Sequence record: MZ956761.1
Length of the DNA stretch: 64,000 bases
From: a phage
Reading direction: 5' to 3' (one strand)
This document shows positions 42,089-51,401 of this stretch, in pieces. The position numbers and the translations under genes are program-made. Under the pieces are notes generated by a model, which saw nothing but the letters and a program-made list of their open reading frames with translations, had not been told where the DNA came from and ran no database searches. How positions within the stretch are numbered: position 1 is the first letter of the stretch; every line of letters starts with the position of its first letter.

Positions 42089-42161
42089 TGGGAATTAGCC
42101 AAGTTGGTAAGGCATAGCACTTTGACTGCTAGATGCAAAGGTTCGAGTCCTTTATTCCCAG
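42089..42161 (+). tRNA. tRNA-Gln (anticodon TTG)
   Basis: Hand-folded cloverleaf: acceptor TGGGAAT/ATTCCCA, T-loop TTCGAGT, anticodon loop CTTTGAC. Confidence 0.7.
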
Positions 42162-42162
42162 C

Positions 42163-42249
42163 GCGAGAATGGTCAAATTGGTAAAGGCACAGCACTTAAA
42201 ATGCTGCGGAATGATTTCCTTGTGGGTTCGAGTCCCACTTCTCGCACCA
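42163..42249 (+). tRNA. tRNA-Leu (anticodon TAA)
   Basis: Acceptor GCGAGAA/TTCTCGC, long variable arm, encoded CCA. Confidence 0.75.
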
Positions 42250-42254
42250 AATTT

Positions 42255-42328
<74 letters not shown>

Positions 42329-42338
42329 ATTTAATCTA

Positions 42339-42412
42339 CTCCGTGTAGCTCAGTTTGGTAGAGCGCCTGATTTGGGATCAGGAGGTCCAAGGTTCAAATC
42401 CTTGTATGGAGA
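42339..42412 (+). tRNA. tRNA-Pro (anticodon TGG)
   Basis: D-arm TAGCTCAGTTTGGTAGAGC, anticodon loop TTTGGGA, T-loop TTCAAAT. Confidence 0.7.
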
Positions 42413-42414
42413 CT

Positions 42415-42504
42415 GGAGGCGTGGCAGAGTGGTTTAATGCACCGGTCTTGAAAACCGGCAGTCGCTCCGGCGACTCATAGGTTCAAATCCTATCGCCTCC
42501 GCCA
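42415..42504 (+). tRNA. tRNA-Ser (anticodon TGA)
   Basis: Acceptor GGAGGCG/CGCCTCC, long variable arm, anticodon loop CTTGAAA, CCA. Confidence 0.75.
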
Positions 42505-42509
42505 GTTTT

Positions 42510-42585
42510 GCTGATTTAGCTCAGTAGGTAGAGCAACTCACTTGTAATGAGAAGGTCGGCGGTTCGATTCCGTCAATCAGCACCA
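42510..42585 (+). tRNA. tRNA-Thr (anticodon TGT)
   Basis: Acceptor GCTGATT/AATCAGC, anticodon loop CTTGTAA, CCA. Confidence 0.75.
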
Positions 42586-42586
42586 A

Positions 42587-42661
42587 GGCCCTGTAGCTGG
42601 AAGGTTCAAGCAAGCGACTCATAATCGCCAGATGGTGGTTCAATTCCACCCAGGGCCACCA
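42587..42661 (+). tRNA. tRNA with CAT anticodon (Ile2-type or Met)
   Basis: Acceptor GGCCCTG/CAGGGCC, anticodon loop CTCATAA, CCA. Confidence 0.65.
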
Positions 42662-42674
42662 AATTAAGAATTAA

Positions 42675-42761
42675 GGGGAGTTATCCCGTAGAGGTAGCGG
42701 TGTGGACTGTAAATCCATTGTCATTGCGACTCGGGTGGTTCGACTCCATCACTCCCCACCA
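42675..42761 (+). tRNA. tRNA-Tyr (anticodon GTA), type II
   Basis: Perfect 7-bp acceptor GGGGAGT/ACTCCCC, anticodon loop CTGTAAA, long variable arm, T-loop TTCGACT, CCA. Confidence 0.6.
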
Positions 42762-42765
42762 ATTT

Positions 42766-42840
42766 GGATGTGTAGCTCAATGGCAGAGCGATCGCCTGTT
42801 AAGCGATTGGTTATAGGTTCGAATCCTATCACGTCCGCCA
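42766..42840 (+). tRNA. tRNA-Asn (anticodon GTT)
   Basis: Acceptor GGATGTG/CACGTCC, anticodon loop CTGTTAA, T-loop TTCGAAT, CCA. Confidence 0.65.
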
Positions 42841-42954
42841 AATTTGTGACAACTGTCACATTAATATCTACTTGACGCGATTATAGGGGTTGAACTGATC
42901 ACTCTTCTCTTAATTTCGTGTGAAGACATCTTGATTGTTGGAGTAGGTATTAAT

Positions 42955-43030
42955 GTGGCCGTAGTTCAGTTGGTAGAACTCGAGATTGTGATTCTCGTAG
43001 TCATGGGTTCGACTCCCATCGGTCACCCCA
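42955..43030 (+). tRNA. tRNA-His (anticodon GTG)
   Basis: Acceptor GTGGCCG/CGGTCAC, anticodon loop TTGTGAT, T-loop TTCGACT, CCA. Confidence 0.6.
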
Positions 43031-43034
43031 ATTA

Positions 43035-43110
43035 CGGGGCATAGCTCAGAAGGAAGAGCAAGGACCTTCTAAGTCCTAGGTCGTAGGTTCGATCCCTACT
43101 GCCTCGACCA
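43035..43110 (+). tRNA. tRNA-Arg (anticodon TCT)
   Basis: D-arm TAGCTCAGAAGGAAGAGC, anticodon loop CTTCTAA, T-loop TTCGATC, CCA. Confidence 0.7.
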
Positions 43111-43126
43111 ATTAAGTGAGGAAAAT

Positions 43127-43477
43127 ATGAAAGGTAATGTTTATTTAGTAGTTCATGATTTAACATTCTATTTTAATCATAATGACACTGTTATTTCTGA
43201 ACGTGTAATTAATTTGCTTTATCAGCACGCAGATTATGTTTATGTCGAAAACGAATATGGTCATTGGCAATTTCTTAAAAATCGTTCATTTGGCTTAGAT
43301 GGTTACGAATACTTTGAACGTAAAGACCTTTTAGATAAAATTCCGTTATCTACACAATATCAAAATCACAAATCTTTATATAAATGCCGACCAATTCGAA
43401 ATGTTGAATCCGCGTATGAAGCAATTGATTTATGGCGTAAACGCCGTGAACAGATTGATGCTTTAAAAGAATATTAA
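43127..43477 (+). CDS. hypothetical protein downstream of tRNA cluster
   Basis: 116-aa ORF with GAGGAAAA SD. Confidence 0.5.
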   Translation: MKGNVYLVVHDLTFYFNHNDTVISERVINLLYQHADYVYVENEYGHWQFLKNRSFGLDGYEYFERKDLLDKIPLSTQYQNHKSLYKCRPIRNVESAYEAIDLWRKRREQIDALKEY

Positions 43478-43479
43478 GA

Positions 43480-43785
43480 AACCGGGTCGCTACCGGTAAG
43501 TCGTCGGACTGATGTTCCCTGAGTAAGGAATTGTGTTAATAAATCTTTATGATTTGTTGATGCCCTCTTACATCACAGCAGAAACGGCGCACCGAATTAT
43601 CGATTCGAGGAAATATCTTTGCCATAAGCCGAGTAGCGTTTTTGACGGAACGTTCGGATATGGTCGAGATATGGCCTTTTAAAAATATTGAGTAGCGTCA
43701 ACTACTTAATAACCGGGTTCGAATCCCGGCGTTTCGTACAAACACTTGCCTTAGCAGGTGGAACCCCGACAAGGTTGCCGCAAGG
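43480..43785 (+). ncRNA. putative small stable RNA(s) (T4 species 1/2-like), tRNA-like elements
   Basis: About 300 bp without ORF; canonical T-arm-like CCGGG-TTCGAAT-CCCGG; ends at a terminator hairpin. Confidence 0.3.
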
Positions 43786-43816
43786 CTTAGCCCCGACCGA
43801 AAGGTTGGGGCTTTTT
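43786..43816 (+). repeat. 31-bp direct repeat with terminator hairpin (left copy)
   Basis: CTTAGCCCCGACCGAAAGGTTGGGGCTTTTT, identical to the copy at 44341. Confidence 0.7.
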
Positions 43817-43818
43817 AG

Positions 43819-43826
43819 TATAAATA
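43819..43826 (+). promoter_or_regulatory. T4-type late promoter (TATAAATA)
   Basis: Exact TATAAATA about 37 bp upstream of the ATG at 43863. Confidence 0.45.
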
Positions 43827-43862
43827 AGTATATTAAAACCACGAATTAAAACAGGAAATAAG

Positions 43863-44336
43863 ATGAAATCATATGCTCAATTTTTAAATGAAGCGGTGTT
43901 AAATGAAGCATCTAGCACCGAAATTCAAGCTGTTGCAAAAGCTGCCATTGCCGCGGGTAAATATTCCTATAAGGATGCTTCCGATGAATCACGATTCCAA
44001 TTTGCTCGTGATATGAAAGCCGAAGGATTTACAGGGAATGCAGTTAGTATGGCTTGGAAAAGTTTAGTTGCTACTGGAGCTGCTTTTGCAAAGGCTTCAG
44101 GTAAACCTGCTCCTAAGGCTGACCCTAAAGCAGCACAAGAAAAAAATATTGCTAAAGGAATTATCTCTAGGTATGAAGCAATTCTTAAAGAACTTTTGAT
44201 AATTAAGACCGAAGGCCAGAAACTTGCGCGAGCTCATAGTTTCAAAGATAATCCACATGCTCATGACCTAGAGTATGTTGAAGACATCCAAAAAATTATT
44301 AAAGACCGCATTTGGTCTGCTAAACAAATCAAATAA
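43863..44336 (+). CDS. capsid-targeting-tag protein (internal-protein-like), 157 aa
   Basis: N-terminus MKSYAQFLNE resembles the IP tag MKTYQEFIAE; late promoter upstream; flanked by identical 31-bp repeats. Confidence 0.5.
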   Translation: MKSYAQFLNEAVLNEASSTEIQAVAKAAIAAGKYSYKDASDESRFQFARDMKAEGFTGNAVSMAWKSLVATGAAFAKASGKPAPKADPKAAQEKNIAKGIISRYEAILKELLIIKTEGQKLARAHSFKDNPHAHDLEYVEDIQKIIKDRIWSAKQIK

Positions 44337-44340
44337 CATT

Positions 44341-44371
44341 CTTAGCCCCGACCGAAAGGTTGGGGCTTTTT
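44341..44371 (+). repeat. 31-bp direct repeat with terminator hairpin (right copy)
   Basis: Identical 31-mer immediately after the stop of the 43863 ORF. Confidence 0.7.
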
Positions 44372-44503
44372 GGTATCTAGGCCTTTCCGGGCCTCTCTAG
44401 GCATCATTTAGTTTATACCCTTTATAATATATTATCCTACCTTTTAATTGCCCCTCCTGACCCTAGAATTCCCTAAAAATTTTTAAAATTTTTTCACAAA
44501 ACG

Positions 44504-44546
44504 GTTTACATCCCCGTTCTTCCATGGTACTATACAACTATCAACT
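44504..44546 (+). promoter_or_regulatory. T4-type early promoter
   Basis: GTTTAC-N18-TGgTACTAT followed by conserved ACAACTATCAACT; AT-rich upstream element. Confidence 0.5.
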
Positions 44547-44576
44547 ACTGATATAGAAAACAACTTGGAGAACGAA

Positions 44577-44840
44577 ATGGATAATTACGGCGAACTGTTC
44601 AACTTCTTTATGAAATGCGTTTCAGAAGATTTCGGTCGTACAGTGAATGATATTAAAGTTATCGGTCCTGATCATCCGATGTTTGAAACTTACGCAGTAA
44701 TGGGTAATGAAGATGGTCAGTGGTATACTGTAAAGGTTGTGATTAATATGTTCACGGCAGAAGGTTATGTTAAACTGTCTTCTAAAGTTTACCATGATAA
44801 CGATGAAATCGCAGAAGAATATTTCAATAATATGAAATAA
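44577..44840 (+). CDS. hypothetical early protein
   Basis: 87 aa from ATG with GGAG SD (track ORF begins at TTG 44565). Confidence 0.5.
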   Translation: MDNYGELFNFFMKCVSEDFGRTVNDIKVIGPDHPMFETYAVMGNEDGQWYTVKVVINMFTAEGYVKLSSKVYHDNDEIAEEYFNNMK

Positions 44841-44842
44841 TT

Positions 44843-44872
44843 GTGTACAAACACCAAGGACGGTGTTATTAT
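44843..44872 (+). promoter_or_regulatory. early-promoter-like element (variant -35)
   Basis: GTGTAC-N18-TATTAT followed by AGACTTATCA box shared with the 45062 copy. Confidence 0.35.
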
Positions 44873-44908
44873 AGACTTATCAAAACAAATACAGAAACGG
44901 AGAAATAA

Positions 44909-45073
44909 ATGACTACTTTAATTATTTGGTTTGACGAAAATGAAGAAACATACTGCGTGAACATTGGCGAAAGCCCAATGCCAGAATTTGAATCTTCGGA
45001 TAAAAACTCGGTTGTATCTTGGGCTGAAGGTTATAAAGCAGCAAAAGGCGATGTTGAAATAGTTTACAACTAA
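44909..45073 (+). CDS. small hypothetical protein
   Basis: 54-aa ORF with GGAG SD, below the track cutoff. Confidence 0.4.
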   Translation: MTTLIIWFDENEETYCVNIGESPMPEFESSDKNSVVSWAEGYKAAKGDVEIVYN

Positions 45074-45091
45074 GTATGAAGGCGTTACTAT
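45062..45091 (+). promoter_or_regulatory. T4-type early promoter
   Basis: GTTTAC-N18-TACTAT followed by AGACTTATCA. Confidence 0.45.
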
Positions 45092-45117
45092 AGACTTATC
45101 ATCACAAGGAAAACATT

Positions 45118-45453
45118 ATGAAACGTAACTTTAGTAAAGCTTTTTGTAATAGAAATGATTATCCTGAAGAGCTTTTTGAATCTAAGGAATTTAAAGAGTT
45201 TAACGAACGTTCTCAAAACATGCCTATACAGTGGGTATTGGATTATGCTAACCGTATCTTTGAAGGCGTACGTTTCGTTGGCCCCGATGATGAAGCTCCT
45301 TATTTTAAAAAGGCTTGGGAACTCGCCAACCAAGCATATATCAATGCTTTAGAATCTTCTAAAGGTACTGACGATGATTTTATTTTATTGGCTATCAATG
45401 ATGCCGTTGTCGAGGCCATCGACGCCTTTATCGACGAGCTAGACGAAGAATAA
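45118..45453 (+). CDS. hypothetical acidic protein
   Basis: 111-aa ORF with AGGA SD. Confidence 0.5.
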   Translation: MKRNFSKAFCNRNDYPEELFESKEFKEFNERSQNMPIQWVLDYANRIFEGVRFVGPDDEAPYFKKAWELANQAYINALESSKGTDDDFILLAINDAVVEAIDAFIDELDEE

Positions 45454-45483
45454 GTTTACAATCTATTAGAAACGTGATATTAT
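45454..45483 (+). promoter_or_regulatory. T4-type early promoter
   Basis: GTTTAC-N18-TGaTATTAT. Confidence 0.45.
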
Positions 45484-45510
45484 CTAATTATACCAACCTA
45501 AGGAAATACT

Positions 45511-46104
45511 ATGAACACACTGAAGAAAATTGTTGAGTTTATTCGCACTAAACTTGGTTCTGCTATGGCTAAAAATTTATCTGTTGAAGAACAGTATACT
45601 GCTGCGGCAGCAAAACTGCTTGATAAAATTAAAGATCTAAAAACTGCTTCTGTTAAATCTATTAATGAAGAAAAGCGTATTCGTGAACTTATTGTCGAAA
45701 AGAATAAGCAGGCCGAATCAAAAGAGCGTGAAATTCGCAAGCTTCTTTCCGAAGGTCAAGATGTAACAATGCATGCTAAACTCGGCTTGCTATATCGTCG
45801 AACAGCTGAGCAGTTGACTACTAAAGCTGATGGTTATGCTGAAATGCGAATTGAAATCGCTAAGAAAGTAGTTGAATTGGATGATGCACGCCAAGAACTT
45901 GCGGTTAAATTGGAATATATCCGTGAAACTCGTGCAGCAAATGCCCTTGGAATTAGTACTGCTGATGATGTAGTTGAAATTGCAGCACTGACTAAGGTTG
46001 ATATTGAAGATACTCTTGCTCGAGTTGAAACCTTTAACGGTAATATTTCTGGGGTTGAAACTACTTCTGCTGATGTTCAGGAATACATTAATTCTCTGAA
46101 ATAA
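45511..46104 (+). CDS. coiled-coil protein, possibly PspA/IM30-like
   Basis: 197 aa, heptad-rich helical sequence; family assignment is impression only. Confidence 0.45.
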
Positions 46105-46109
46105 TGATA

Positions 46110-46125
46110 AGGGGCTTCGGCCCCT
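46110..46125 (+). terminator. hairpin terminator
   Basis: AGGGGC-TTCG-GCCCCT after the stop at 46104. Confidence 0.5.
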
Positions 46126-46145
46126 ATTACTTGGAGTAAATAGGA

Positions 46146-46754
46146 ATGAAAATGCAAAGTGATTTCAATTCAATGTTTGAAGAGTTCCAAAGACAGGTTG
46201 ATGTTCCAGACCAATTACTAAATGCTCTTAAACGTATGGCAGAAGGACGTAATTATTATTGGGGTTCTTCATATGAAACTGATGAAAGTCTTTCTGGAAG
46301 ATTTTCCAGAGGTAAAAAGTCTTTAATACGTCCTGGAATACTTATTAACAGTATTGAATCAATTCATTCATTGACATGTGATTTTGATGTTGAATTTACT
46401 GATTTCATTTCTCCTGAATGGTCAGTTTGTTATTTAAACGACGATTTTGATTATCTCGGTGTTTATAGTTTAAGTGACGCATGGTTTAAACGTAACTTAC
46501 AAAAGTCAAATTTATTTTATATTGATACTACGGTAAAATTTCAGGGCAAGAAATATTTTTTTACTCTTATAGTTGATTCTGAAACGAAGTATGAAAATAA
46601 ACGTATTCTTAGTAAAAAGAATATCTTAACTATTGTTGATGATCTTTTTGATAAATTCGTAGAAAATCCCAATTTTGAAAGCGATTTATTACTAGAAAAA
46701 TTTGTGAAGGAATGTAGAGAATATGTCAAAGCCATCAATGTATCTTCCAAGTAA
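46146..46754 (+). CDS. hypothetical protein, first of four coupled genes
   Basis: 202 aa; C-terminal FVKECREYVK overlaps next gene start. Confidence 0.5.
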   Translation: MKMQSDFNSMFEEFQRQVDVPDQLLNALKRMAEGRNYYWGSSYETDESLSGRFSRGKKSLIRPGILINSIESIHSLTCDFDVEFTDFISPEWSVCYLNDDFDYLGVYSLSDAWFKRNLQKSNLFYIDTTVKFQGKKYFFTLIVDSETKYENKRILSKKNILTIVDDLFDKFVENPNFESDLLLEKFVKECREYVKAINVSSK

Positions 46755-47115
46755 ACCGTTGAAGTATGAATTAAAGCGCCAGCTAATTTCTACTGATGTA
46801 TTAATAGGTCCTGTAATAGCTGTATCATTTGTAATTCTACTGGGGGTTGGAATAGTTATAGATGTTATGACTGATATTGAATCTAATATAATATTTGCGT
46901 CAACATTAATTCTTCCAATGATAGTTCCATTTTTATTAGTACCTGTAAATTGGGTAGGATACTGGTATCAAGGAAGGCATTATCGTAAACGCGTACGTGA
47001 TTGGAAAGCACAGTGTAAAAAGATTAAAAAGGAACATCAGCTTAAACTTGCTGCGTATGAATTTGATGAAATTATGAAATTTGTTAAGGAATCACGATGC
47101 AAAAGCCAAAACTAA
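46723..47115 (+). CDS. small membrane protein
   Basis: 130 aa with hydrophobic segments; C-terminal FVKESRCK. Confidence 0.5.
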   Translation: MSKPSMYLPSKPLKYELKRQLISTDVLIGPVIAVSFVILLGVGIVIDVMTDIESNIIFASTLILPMIVPFLLVPVNWVGYWYQGRHYRKRVRDWKAQCKKIKKEHQLKLAAYEFDEIMKFVKESRCKSQN

Positions 47116-47459
47116 ATAAAGTCAAATATTCGCTTCCTGAGTCATTTTTAATTTTTGCTGTGGCGTTGGCTGCAGCTCTTGCGGGTAGTCTTTTTGGATT
47201 GTTAATTGACTGTCTTATTTTAAACATTGACGGCACAGTAAATATAATAGAAGTTTGGAGTGAACTTCACTATACTAAAATTATTTCATTATTTTCATTC
47301 TTTGGTACCATGTTATATTTTCATTATGATAATTTTAAAATAAATTGGCAAAGAAAAAAAGATTACAAAATACAATTAAAAGAATATAATAGCTACATGT
47401 CTTATATTGAAAAAGAATCAATGGAAGAGTTTGTGAGTGATTGTAGGAAAATTAAATGA
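47097..47459 (+). CDS. small membrane protein
   Basis: 120 aa, two hydrophobic segments; C-terminal FVSDCRKIK. Confidence 0.5.
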   Translation: MQKPKLNKVKYSLPESFLIFAVALAAALAGSLFGLLIDCLILNIDGTVNIIEVWSELHYTKIISLFSFFGTMLYFHYDNFKINWQRKKDYKIQLKEYNSYMSYIEKESMEEFVSDCRKIK

Positions 47460-47944
47460 TTTTAAAAACTCGCTGGTATGATTTAGATGATGGGGATGAT
47501 GGCATTTCAGTTGATAGAGTTGACTGGAATGGTTGTTCCGAAGATATGAAAAATTTGTTGATTAGGGAGTTTAGAATGGGATATCAAGCAGCTAAGCCAT
47601 TTACTGTAACAGATGATAAGTTCGTATGTATTCAAAACGGTCGCGCTAAGTTAACGAATGCTGATTGGTTCACAGATAAGAAGGTTCTTCTGTGGTATAT
47701 CATTAGTCTTCCTATATCATCGTTCGTATTTTACTTTTTTATAAAAAATCCAATGGACAGAATAGGAGATTGGGTTCTTTTAACTATACTTGTTAATATT
47801 TTTACAGCAGCAGTATTATCAGGAATATGGTACATGTTCATTGAAATGCCATGGCGGTTACGCAGACAGCAAAAGATTTTTGATGAAAAGAAATATACTC
47901 AAAATTTAAATAACTTTATCACTGAATGCAGGAAATTAAAATGA
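47456..47944 (+). CDS. small membrane protein
   Basis: 162 aa, hydrophobic segments; C-terminal FITECRKLK. Confidence 0.5.
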   Translation: MILKTRWYDLDDGDDGISVDRVDWNGCSEDMKNLLIREFRMGYQAAKPFTVTDDKFVCIQNGRAKLTNADWFTDKKVLLWYIISLPISSFVFYFFIKNPMDRIGDWVLLTILVNIFTAAVLSGIWYMFIEMPWRLRRQQKIFDEKKYTQNLNNFITECRKLK

Positions 47945-48381
47945 AAACACTATCAGCTGGTATTATCTTTATGACAGAAGATAAAGATTTATTTATGGGT
48001 CGGGTTACTGGTTCTCGTAAGCCTGGAATGATGGCACACCGCTGGGATATTCCAAAGGGCCGTGTAGAAAATTCTGATTTAAGCGCATTAGATGCAGCAC
48101 GAAGAGAATGTTTAGAAGAGACTGGTTTTAGCAATTATAATCCAGACCTTCTAGAAGACCTAGGTGTATTTAAATATTCTAGTAATAAAGACCTACAGTT
48201 ATTTTATTATACGATTCCAGTAGAGCATGAGATGTTTAGAAATTGCCATTGCGAGTCTTATTTTGAAAATAAAGACGGTGTTATGATTCCAGAGATGGAC
48301 GCTTTTGCTCTTATTCCTCGTACTCAGTGGCAATATGTGATGGGTCCTTCACTTTACCGAATAATGAACAACCTCTTTTAA
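47926..48381 (+). CDS. nudE: NudE Nudix hydrolase
   Basis: 151 aa; Nudix box GRVENSDLSALDAARRECLEETGF; start could also be the Met at 47941. Confidence 0.8.
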   Translation: MQEIKMKTLSAGIIFMTEDKDLFMGRVTGSRKPGMMAHRWDIPKGRVENSDLSALDAARRECLEETGFSNYNPDLLEDLGVFKYSSNKDLQLFYYTIPVEHEMFRNCHCESYFENKDGVMIPEMDAFALIPRTQWQYVMGPSLYRIMNNLF

Positions 48382-48912
<531 letters not shown>

Positions 48913-48916
48913 AGTT

Positions 48917-48946
48917 GTTTACTTTCTCCTAGAATTGTGATAGTAT
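48917..48946 (+). promoter_or_regulatory. T4-type early promoter
   Basis: GTTTAC-N18-TGaTAGTAT upstream of the internal-protein gene. Confidence 0.45.
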
Positions 48947-48983
48947 ATTCACAGTTACTAATTAAAATATTTAAAGGAAACAC

Positions 48984-49301
48984 ATGAAAACGTATAAAGA
49001 ATTTATTGCAGAATCTGCTGCAGGACAACGTGTAGAAGGCGGTTATATCTGGATTGAACAAGTTGAGCCGCCGAGTCGCACTTCTACGGGTAAATGGAAA
49101 ATCACTGTTGATGGTCCTGGTGGTAAACGTAGGACTCTTAAAGAAATTAACGGGTACTATGAAGAAGCTCTTTCTGACGCGGGTACTTATATGATGCAAA
49201 TCATGATTAAAAACCCAGAAAATCGTTTTGCGGCTAGAGTTTTCCGCCGTATTGGAAATAAGCTTTATGATGCATATTCTAAAAACTTTCCTAAAGAATA
49301 A
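48984..49301 (+). CDS. internal head protein (IPII/IPIII-type)
   Basis: 105 aa; N-terminal MKTYKEFIAE capsid-targeting tag. Confidence 0.7.
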   Translation: MKTYKEFIAESAAGQRVEGGYIWIEQVEPPSRTSTGKWKITVDGPGGKRRTLKEINGYYEEALSDAGTYMMQIMIKNPENRFAARVFRRIGNKLYDAYSKNFPKE

Positions 49302-49317
49302 AAATTAAAGGATACAC

Positions 49318-49791
49318 ATGAAAACATATCAAGAATTTATTACTGAAGCAGCTATTAATTCTCAAATTATTGCTGAATCTTTTACTGATCTTTTGAAATT
49401 TAAAAAAGGTCAAAAAATCACTGCTGTATTGGATGATGGTACAGAAGTTGAGATGGATGTACAGGGATATAATTATGCAGTAGATGGAAAACTGTATAAT
49501 AAATCTCATGCTAAATTTGATTCATTTGACGACTTTGTTAATACAGTTGAAGATGAAAAAACTCGTAGATCCATTGCAACTGGTGATGCTAAGGTTCTTA
49601 TGGCACATGGTCATGAACGCATTCGCGCTAAACAGAATAAAATGGGTGAAGATAATTTTGCATTAGTTGGTTATCAATCTGGTAAACAAACTTATGGCTA
49701 TCAGCGTACTGCTACCATGTATAACAAAAATGGTAAAATCGCTTTCGTGAATAGCAAAGGCTCTATTCAGTACGTCAAATCATTCAAATAA
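49318..49791 (+). CDS. internal head protein (IPII/IPIII-type)
   Basis: 157 aa; N-terminal MKTYQEFITE capsid-targeting tag. Confidence 0.7.
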   Translation: MKTYQEFITEAAINSQIIAESFTDLLKFKKGQKITAVLDDGTEVEMDVQGYNYAVDGKLYNKSHAKFDSFDDFVNTVEDEKTRRSIATGDAKVLMAHGHERIRAKQNKMGEDNFALVGYQSGKQTYGYQRTATMYNKNGKIAFVNSKGSIQYVKSFK

Positions 49792-49944
49792 GCAAATAAG
49801 AAATATGGGAACAAGCTGGACCTCATGATTCTATGAGGGATTCCCGCCAACCTGTAATAAGGTCGAGCCCAAGCGCGGTAATGGGTAAATACAGAAATGG
49901 ACAATTCATGCGCCATGGAATGGCCCAAATTTAGAGAGAATAAA

Positions 49945-50484
49945 ATGAGAACATTTTTAACTGGTCCTTATCTATCCCTGATGAATGCTTTTACACACCA
50001 TTCTGATGCTAGAGTAGAAGAAATTTGTAAAAACGAATATATCCCGCCATTTGAAGACTTACTCAAACAGTACTGCACACTTCGCATAGATGGTGGACGT
50101 CAATCCGGCAAATCAATTGCTGTGACTAACTTTGCTGCTAATTGGCTGTATGATGGCGGAACAGTTATTGTTCTTTCTAATACTTCAGCTTACGCTAAAA
50201 TTTCTGCAAATAACATCAAAAAGGAATTTTCGCGTTATTCTAATGATGATATACGTTTTCGTTTATTTACTGATTCTGTGCGCAGTTTTATTGGTAATAA
50301 AGGAAGCAAGTTCAGAGGTTTATCGCTTTCGCGAATTTTGTATATAATTGATGAGCCTGTCAAATCTCCTGATATGGATAAGATTTATAGTGTCCATATT
50401 GACACTGTACACTACTGCTGTAATAGTAAATGTTGCATTGGTGGTATTACTCGTCCGCAGTTTTTCGTAATCGGAATGCAATGA
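49945..50484 (+). CDS. small P-loop NTPase-like protein
   Basis: 179 aa from ATG with GAGAG SD; Walker A-like GGRQSGKS and Walker B-like ILYIIDEP. Confidence 0.5.
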   Translation: MRTFLTGPYLSLMNAFTHHSDARVEEICKNEYIPPFEDLLKQYCTLRIDGGRQSGKSIAVTNFAANWLYDGGTVIVLSNTSAYAKISANNIKKEFSRYSNDDIRFRLFTDSVRSFIGNKGSKFRGLSLSRILYIIDEPVKSPDMDKIYSVHIDTVHYCCNSKCCIGGITRPQFFVIGMQ

Positions 50485-50810
50485 TGACAGATACACAGCT
50501 TTTCGAATATCTCTATTTTTCGCCAAAAACTATTAAAAATAAATTGGTAAATCATTTTGAAATTTTGGCAAATAACAACATTTTGAGCGAATTTTATCCC
50601 AAGCAATACAAATTACAAAAAGGTGTATTCAAAGGATGCAGAGTTTTGTGCACTGCTCCTAATGCACGGCTAATGAATAAAATTCCATATTTTACCATGG
50701 AATTTATTGATGGACCTTTTAAAGGATTAATTACGCAAAGTTTAATGGCATATGATTCTGAGCCGTTTTTAATTAAAGAACAATCTTGGATAAATTTATT
50801 TTCTAATTGA
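50481..50810 (+). CDS. hypothetical protein coupled to the P-loop ORF
   Basis: About 110 aa; ATGA start/stop overlap. Confidence 0.45.
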
Positions 50811-50817
50811 GGTTTAT

Positions 50818-51180
50818 ATGAAAGCATATCAAATTCTTGAAGGCACACATAAAGGTACTATTTATTTTGAAGATGGTATTCAGGCACGAATTATTGTCTC
50901 TAAAACCTTTAAAGAGGACTCTTTTGTAGACCCAGAAATTTTCTATGGTTTGCACGCCCGTGAAATTGAAATTGAAACACAACCTACAGTTAAAATTGAA
51001 GGTGGTCAGCACCTGAACGTTAACGTTCTGCGTCGTGAAACTTTGGAAGATGCAGTTAAGCATCCGGAAAAATATCCGCAGCTGACCATCCGTGTATCCG
51101 GTTATGCAGTTCGCTTTAACTCTCTGACTCCGGAACAGCAGCGCGACGTTATCGCTCGTACCTTTACTGAGAGTCTGTAA
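50818..51180 (+). CDS. autonomous glycyl-radical cofactor (GrcA/YfiD-like; T4 Y06I type)
   Basis: 120 aa; C-terminus [29 protein letters not shown] carries the glycyl-radical motif and matches E. coli GrcA as recalled. Confidence 0.85.
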
Positions 51181-51401
51181 TGGCAAAGATAATTATTGAA
51201 GGTTCTAAAGATGTGCTAAATGCTTTCGCAGAATGGTTTAGTAATTCAGGCGAACAGCAATTTAATGAAGCGTGGAATATGGGTGATATTAGTGGAATTT
51301 ATCCTACGACAGAAATTTCTGTTCAGGGATATGGCATTCATGAACCTATTCGTTTAGTTGAATATGATTTATGTACTGGTGAGGAAGTCAAATATGATTG
51401 A
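51180..51401 (+). CDS. hypothetical small protein (vs.5 position)
   Basis: 73-aa ORF, start overlaps previous stop. Confidence 0.5.
   Translation: MAKIIIEGSKDVLNAFAEWFSNSGEQQFNEAWNMGDISGIYPTTEISVQGYGIHEPIRLVEYDLCTGEEVKYD

Follow-up and report, generated by a model that had tools for sequence, protein, structure and literature searches.

A tract of Escherichia coli grcA DNA within the glycyl-radical domain of the T4-type phage gene vs.6

The DNA analyzed here, referred to as the window, is a 64,000-nucleotide stretch of sequence record MZ956761.1 from a T4-type phage. The gene of interest starts with ATG, encodes 120 aa on the plus strand, and is 100% identical in DNA to its counterpart in Escherichia phage ADUt. 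It is also 96 to 99% identical to several hundred Tequatrovirus records, where it is annotated as vs.6 or GrcA, and at least 80% of it was covered in 745 phage records by megablast. In T4-style names, as used for RB51 and T4 (NC_000866), vs.6 sits between vs.8/vs.7 and vs.5/vs.4/vs.3/regB. A PHROG profile search placed the full length of the protein (aa 1 to 120) in phrog_1209 (E = 5.4e-63), which makes it a member of the T4 vs.6 orthologous group. The protein is stand-alone, as separate genes vs.7 and vs.5 bound the reading frame, and its length falls within the range of the small GrcA proteins (about 14 kDa, 120 to 127 aa). The vs.6 stop codon TAA (51178-51180) shares position 51180 with the start codon ATG of vs.5, and a GAGG motif ahead of the start codon may serve in translation. 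A scan for promoters and terminators returned 7 sites, with 8.9 expected from shuffled sequence, and hence no excess. The features of the locus are collected in Table 1.

Table 1. Coordinates of features at the vs.6 locus, numbered from the first nucleotide of the window
Feature	Coordinates	Strand	Basis and remarks
GAGG, Shine-Dalgarno-like	50809..50812	+	Read from sequence; 5 nt 5′ of the ATG; overlaps the vs.7 TGA (50808-50810)
vs.6 (T4 Y06I orthologue), GrcA-like, 120 aa	50818..51180	+	ORF, DNA match, Pfam Gly_radical, PDB 6owr
Phage-type N-terminal half of vs.6, aa 1-60, AT-rich	50818..50997	+	Identity to grcA of E. coli 81/180 nt, K. pneumoniae 73/180, Salmonella 78/180; GC3 0.20
E. coli-derived gene-conversion tract, aa 61-116, glycyl-radical domain	50998..51165	+	Identity to grcA of E. 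coli 167/168 nt, K. pneumoniae 148/168, Salmonella 139/168
GGT codon of Gly95 in RVSGY, predicted radical-bearing	51100..51102	+	Computed position; equals GrcA Gly102 and PflB Gly734
Phage-type 3′ end of vs.6, ..GAG AGT CTG TAA	51169..51180	+	GAG AGT common to phage copies; hosts have GAA AGC
vs.5	51180..51401	+	ORF

Upstream of vs.6, the mechanically called reading frame of vs.7 (50430-50810) overlaps vs.8, and its PHROG family aligns only from aa 18. The true start of vs.7 is probably the ATG near 50478-50481, which adjoins the vs.8 stop codon and resembles the abutting vs.8/vs.7 arrangement of RB51. The vs.8-like reading frame (49897-50484, 195 aa) contains a Walker-A-like motif, GGRQSGKS, has its own family (phrog_1488), and weakly matches phrog_2, the ATPase region of the terminase large subunit (E = 7.8e-6); it may be an uncharacterised P-loop protein. 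Between the lysozyme gene e (48418-48912) and vs.8, positions 48984-49791 hold two reading frames that start MKTY(K/Q)EFI(A/T)E, one of 105 aa (phrog_3966) and one of 157 aa (phrog_3155, internal virion protein). denV is absent between e and vs.8 in the window, the order being e-ipIII-ipII-denV-vs.8 in T4 and e-denV-Ip4-vs.8 in RB51. The 48984-49791 interval looks like a variable internal-protein locus.

The original prediction, made from the letters of the DNA, was that the gene encodes a phage glycyl-radical cofactor related to host GrcA, and both the protein as quoted there and its assignment were upheld. The Pfam Gly_radical family (PF01228) matched aa 60 to 101 with 67 bits against a cut-off of 22, and the best NCBIfam model was TIGR04365 (154.6 bits, E = 1.4e-45, aa 20 to 120), which describes the autonomous glycyl radical cofactor GrcA. 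That score lies below the equivalog cut-off of 170 bits for TIGR04365 because the N terminus has diverged; E. coli GrcA scored 234 bits and a T5-like phage copy 121 bits on the same model. The best solved structure was YfiD (PDB 6owr; E = 4.6e-42), and all other PDB and NCBIfam matches were to PFL-type enzymes, with vs.6 aa 58 to 120 aligning to PflB 697 to 759 (PDB 1h16 and 2pfl; E = 4.8e-26). As is characteristic of GrcA/YfiD (TIGR04365, IPR011140), the RVSGY motif is present and its glycine aligns with PflB Gly734. In a BLASTP comparison with E. coli GrcA (WP_000627807), aa 22 to 120 of vs.6 aligned to GrcA 28 to 127 (E = 3e-52). Within that alignment, vs.6 aa 61 to 120 were identical to GrcA 68 to 127 at 60 of 60 positions, RVSGY included, and the similarity therefore extends well beyond the motif. 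The N-terminal region (aligned part, aa 22 to 60) was only about 30 to 33% identical to GrcA.

The gene and its biochemical role are already known through T4, as the original prediction had stated. The T4 vs.6 protein (NP_049730, called Y06I in the older literature and named GrcA in RefSeq) is identical to the window protein at 118 of 120 residues, the changes being T54P and R73H. E. coli YfiD and T4 Y06I are described as the two experimentally validated spare-part proteins (PMC8683613). That article, citing Wagner et al. 2001 (pmid 11444864), states that the PFL-activating enzyme PFL-AE introduces a glycyl radical into YfiD/Y06I and that these proteins form a complex with O2-cleaved PFL in which activity is restored. 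A literature search found no paper in which a vs.6 mutant was tested. We conclude that vs.6 is a known and routinely annotated gene, and at 118/120 identity the window copy would be expected to share the function of T4 Y06I.

The DNA of vs.6 is a mosaic. In 5,426 of 5,426 complete E. coli genomes, grcA was 98.4% identical to bases 179 to 363 of the gene, and the bases before position 179 gave no alignment to those genomes. Over 183 bases, 180 agreed with E. coli grcA, and the grcA genes of 80 other host species gave a median identity of 85%; the DNA identity to E. coli is far beyond chance. In both pairwise and multiple alignments the identity began at TTGAAGGTGGTCAG, which defines the left edge of the tract, and a single mismatch to E. 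coli followed over 168 nt. Toward the right edge, the two final differences (GAG AGT, where the host has GAA AGC) were common to the Mosigvirus, Roth22, and GAP161 copies and were found in no host. When a non-converted phage copy and E. coli were taken as the two parents, informative sites placed the left junction between 50995 and 50997-51006. The right junction, on the strength of two or three such sites, falls between 51168 and 51171, and the pattern of the tract gave Fisher p values of 1e-12 to 2e-18. The C-terminal half had been predicted to be host-like as a whole, which holds throughout at the amino acid level; in DNA the likeness stops short, as the last ~10 nt are phage type.

Codon choice and composition indicated the origin of the tract. 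Where vs.6 and E. coli grcA encode the same amino acid, 58 of 61 codons were identical, the same degree of separation as between E. coli and a second Escherichia species; the corresponding figure for Salmonella and E. coli was 36 of 59. GC3 of the tract (0.45) matched that of E. coli grcA (0.44) and exceeded that of the N-terminal half of vs.6 (0.20) and of the neighboring phage genes (0.20 to 0.29), and total GC rose from 0.33 in the N-terminal half to 0.50 in the tract. The choice of CTG, CGT, and CCG codons in the tract likewise differed from that of the neighboring genes. The tract thus carries donor-specific synonymous variants and donor-like composition between recipient-type flanks, as expected of host-to-phage gene conversion. 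Because the composition of the tract is host-like and E. coli grcA is normal among enterobacterial grcA genes in both of its halves, we conclude that the transfer ran from host to phage. The near-identity that had seemed striking in an AT-rich genome reflects a bounded stretch of host-derived DNA rather than conservation.

When the window was compared by megablast with the 5,426 E. coli genomes, the tract was the top match in every genome within positions 39001-64000, and positions 1-39000 gave no match. We conclude that the grcA tract is the only host-identical protein-coding DNA found within the 64-kb window, since the other similarity to enterobacterial replicons lay in the region of the tRNA cluster (~42500-42830).

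Eleven tRNA genes lie at 42089-43110 on the plus strand (Gln, Leu, Gly, Pro, Ser, Thr, Met(CAT), Tyr, Asn, His, and Arg); T4 is usually described with 8. The Thr, Tyr, and Asn genes (~42500-42830) were 83 to 88% identical in DNA to about 240 non-mobilizable plasmids of Escherichia, Shigella, and Salmonella, ~50 to 170 kb in size, in which no protein is annotated at the match. These matches may represent tRNA genes on phage-plasmids. Four pieces of the window, spread over ~7.5 kb (~42337-49887) and reaching from the tRNA region to a point short of vs.8, matched one E. coli plasmid, CP057073.1 (137 kb), with 90.6% identity; on the plasmid, the matches fall inside a 1.4-kb stretch annotated "hypothetical protein."

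The part of vs.6 outside the tract belongs to an older phage gene. Conservation of the N-terminal half extends to T4-like phages infecting Klebsiella (Jiaodavirus), Enterobacter (Karamvirus), Citrobacter, and Cronobacter (Pseudotevenvirus), as well as to Klebsiella phage Roth22, and its nucleotide identity to the Jiaodavirus, Karamvirus, and Mosigvirus copies ranged from 132 to 158 of 180. Nolan et al. (2006; PMC1524935) reported that vs.6 was conserved across all of the T4-like genomes they compared. The N-terminal half had been predicted simply to differ from that of host GrcA, and differ it does (Table 1). It is not unrelated, however: a profile of the phage N-terminal halves aligned by hhalign to a profile of the host GrcA N-terminal halves with a probability of 92.8% (E = 4e-7, 30% identity, 47 columns), as expected of an anciently diverged GrcA N terminus, and vs.6 in its entirety is therefore derived from a grcA. 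Among the Karamvirus, Pseudotevenvirus, Roth22, and T5-like copies, the C-terminal halves were 73 to 85% identical in DNA to every sampled host and encoded nearly the same protein.

GrcA-like matches were found in 1,536 phage records altogether. T5-like phages of E. coli and Salmonella (Tequintavirus and Epseptimavirus) encode a GrcA-like protein of 122 aa that starts with MKAYQ, as do the T4-like copies, and the C-terminal half of their gene was 73 to 76% identical in DNA to any sampled host. The profile signals of the T5-like N-terminal half were weak, with hhalign probabilities of 66% against the T4-like N-terminal half and 21% against that of the hosts.

A corresponding tract was present in Klebsiella phages, with a different donor. 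In the Jiaodavirus KPV15, the C-terminal half of the gene was 97.1% identical to K. pneumoniae grcA (bases 1 to 173), 92% identical to that of K. aerogenes, and about 86 to 87% identical to that of E. coli, the K. pneumoniae grcA having been taken from a K. pneumoniae chromosome mislabelled within a plasmid collection. Over the 168-nt tract, KPV15 agreed with K. pneumoniae at 164 positions and with E. coli at 147, the mirror image of the window phage (148 and 167, respectively). The KPV15/K. pneumoniae alignment ended ~10 nt before the stop codon, and by informative sites the last K. pneumoniae-type position fell ~20 nt short of the 3′ end of the gene. We rejected the reading that KPV15 does not track its host: identities of 86 to 88.5% were obtained against grcA loci of 80 GTDB species, a set that does not include K. 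pneumoniae itself, and rose to 97.1% once K. pneumoniae was considered. When the K. pneumoniae tract was searched against the phage database, 106 records, all of them Klebsiella phages among the matches listed, matched at 95 to 99% and 28 more at 90 to 95%, and E. coli and Shigella phages matched at 86 to 88%. The E. coli and Klebsiella tracts are separate transfers, because each differs from its own host at 1 to 4 positions and the hosts are ~20 apart, which rules out co-divergence. We conclude that at least two independent conversion events, with E. coli and K. pneumoniae as donors, are well supported.

Conversion was not found in every host group, and the Klebsiella tracts were not uniform. 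Neither the Salmonella nor the Enterobacter grcA tract matched anything in the phage database above 84 to 86%, with the exception of one record at 90 to 95% for Enterobacter that was not among the matches listed. As the search turned up no phage whose tract is of the Salmonella or Enterobacter type, conversion is sporadic and not general. Within Jiaodavirus, identity of the tract to K. pneumoniae was 164 of 168 in KPV15, 160 in KMI12, and 152 in ATCCa. The best match to the ATCCa tract was a metagenome-assembled Raoultella genome at 157 of 168, with K. pneumoniae at 90%; a closer donor was looked for and not found, and a third event is unproven.

In KPV15 (NC_055715.1, 401-762), a 1-nt deletion in a T run of the N-terminal half breaks the vs.6 orthologue into two annotated coding sequences, and the gene is intact in the sister phages KMI12 and ATCCa. 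The deletion may be an error of sequencing, or the gene may have become a pseudogene recently.

Comparison with Mosigvirus bore on the age of the E. coli-type tract. Between the window phage and a Mosigvirus, 6 of 56 same-amino-acid codons differed in the tract, compared with 60 of 164 in vs.7, the N-terminal half of vs.6, and vs.5 combined (p = 1.7e-4); the contrast between the tract and the N-terminal half alone was not significant. By this crude measure, the codon differences hint at a tract that arose after Tequatrovirus and Mosigvirus diverged, and perhaps the conversion in Mosigvirus was separate from that in Tequatrovirus.

Other origins for the mosaic can be weighed against the overwriting of an old phage gene. 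One is recent capture of an entire E. coli grcA followed by very fast divergence of the N-terminal half, which is indeed remotely homologous to the GrcA N terminus and less constrained than the C-terminal half among both hosts and phages. Capture would, however, set 45% DNA identity with saturated synonymous sites directly beside a tract at 99.4%, and no plausible rate difference within 363 nt produces such a step. In addition, phages of Klebsiella, Enterobacter, Citrobacter, and Cronobacter carry the same phage-type N-terminal half, which therefore predates the tract. These two observations effectively refute whole-gene capture, the chance of which we regard as negligible. The abrupt onset of DNA similarity at the start of the radical domain could instead mark a fusion, in which illegitimate recombination joined a phage N-terminal peptide of unrelated origin to a 3′ piece of grcA captured from the host. 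Against a fusion, the N-terminal profile matches that of host GrcA, and other phage genera share the full-length architecture with an old, diverged C-terminal half. The phage-type last ~10 nt are also common to other genera, and both junctions therefore lie inside preexisting homology; a fusion is very improbable. Finally, there may have been no transfer at all, with selection on codon usage, mRNA structure, or the protein holding the DNA of an anciently shared gene nearly identical, a reading that draws on the near invariance of the C-terminal 60 aa across Enterobacteriaceae and phages. Phages GAP161 and Roth22, however, encode the same protein with DNA that is only 83% identical, and the codon usage of the tract is host-like and unlike that of neighboring phage genes. 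Moreover, the tract follows the synonymous variants of E. coli, and that of Jiaodavirus those of K. pneumoniae. This host-species-specific pattern contradicts the absence of transfer, which has hardly any probability left.

The function of the protein has an alternative as well, namely that it works for NrdD, the anaerobic ribonucleotide reductase of the phage, or sequesters host PflA as a decoy. T4-type phages do encode a glycyl-radical NrdD. A role in nucleotide metabolism was suggested from the Gly_radical domain in an early comparative study (PMC1524935). The radical domain is nevertheless identical to that of GrcA, with the alignment to PflB 697 to 759 and the other matches all of PFL type, and the biochemistry summarized in PMC8683613 shows that Y06I reconstitutes cleaved PFL; we consider another function improbable. 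We conclude with considerable confidence that vs.6 is an old phage grcA homologue whose radical domain was overwritten by E. coli DNA and whose product serves as a spare part for PflB.

The following sequence of events would account for the role of the protein and for the mosaic. During infection, the host activase PflA would install the radical on Gly95 of vs.6. When O2 cleaves PflB at Gly734, the C-terminal domain of vs.6 (aa ~58 to 120) would dock into the truncated enzyme and restore catalysis. T4-type shutoff of the host would leave no new PflB or GrcA to be made, such that the phage would supply the repair part, and the benefit may lie in sustained fermentative acetyl-CoA and ATP in a gut of fluctuating low oxygen. 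The tract itself may be the product of homologous recombination of the phage gene already in place with fragments of host grcA DNA, in which case the junctions would be forced to the edges of nucleotide homology and the right junction would also have to keep the TAATG stop/start overlap with vs.5. In Tequatrovirus and Mosigvirus, about 50998-51168 in window coordinates was overwritten from E. coli grcA, leaving the phage-type N-terminal half and last ~10 nt; in Jiaodavirus, an equivalent independent event had K. pneumoniae grcA as its donor. E. coli-type tracts encode ETLEDAVKH and Klebsiella-type tracts ETLLDAVEH (E/L and K/E), and such host-specific residues are compatible with an adaptive role of conversion. 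The broader proposal that the radical domain is repeatedly overwritten by the grcA of the current host, which would keep the protein matched to host PflB and PflA, is possible, and we lean slightly against it. Neither the recurrence nor the adaptiveness of conversion is established.

The function of vs.6 is ordinary, and the host-specific tracts are a modest evolutionary addition. No earlier description of a DNA-level mosaic in vs.6 was found in the searchable literature, and novelty is unproven. The tract nonetheless provides a clean, datable case in which host chromosomal DNA entered a T-even gene despite degradation of host DNA and cytosine modification, and it affects only the portion of the protein that has to fit the PflB and PflA of the host. 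The donor species of the tract could serve as a simple marker of recent host history in T4-like phages. Were conversion recurrent, gene conversion from host to phage could be measured tractably in vs.6, which would also allow a test of whether recombination, and not point mutation, is the means by which auxiliary metabolic genes follow their hosts.

Among known systems, the closest is T4 Y06I itself, with 97.5% DNA identity and the same vs.8-vs.7-vs.6-vs.5 order, from which the window copy differs by the two substitutions and a few synonymous sites. At three positions in the tract, either the window copy agrees with E. coli and T4 does not (CAG versus CAA and CGT versus CAT) or the reverse is true (CTG/TTG, gene nucleotide ~227). 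E. coli GrcA/YfiD (P68066; PDB 6owr) is likewise a small stand-alone glycyl-radical protein with an identical C-terminal half, but the phage N-terminal part is 7 residues shorter and the phage gene lies in an early-gene cluster, with an AT-rich N-terminal half and a phage-type 3′ end. The GrcA-like genes of Karamvirus, Pseudotevenvirus, T5-like Demerecviridae, and Aeromonas and Erwinia phages share the architecture and the radical motif; their C-terminal halves, in contrast, are 73 to 85% identical to sampled hosts and carry no recent host-derived tract. A broader parallel may be drawn with cyanophage psbA and psbD (Sullivan et al. 2006; PMC1484495), which, like vs.6, would be auxiliary metabolic genes long resident in T4-like phages and bearing host-derived patches, detectable in their case by composition and phylogeny. 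The gene, host group, and environment all differ, and vs.6 has a single clean patch of ~170 nt that, in two lineages of enterobacterial phages, is 97 to 99% identical to the species now serving as host. If repeated overwriting proves true, vs.6 would be the enterobacterial T-even counterpart of psbA recombination in cyanophages.
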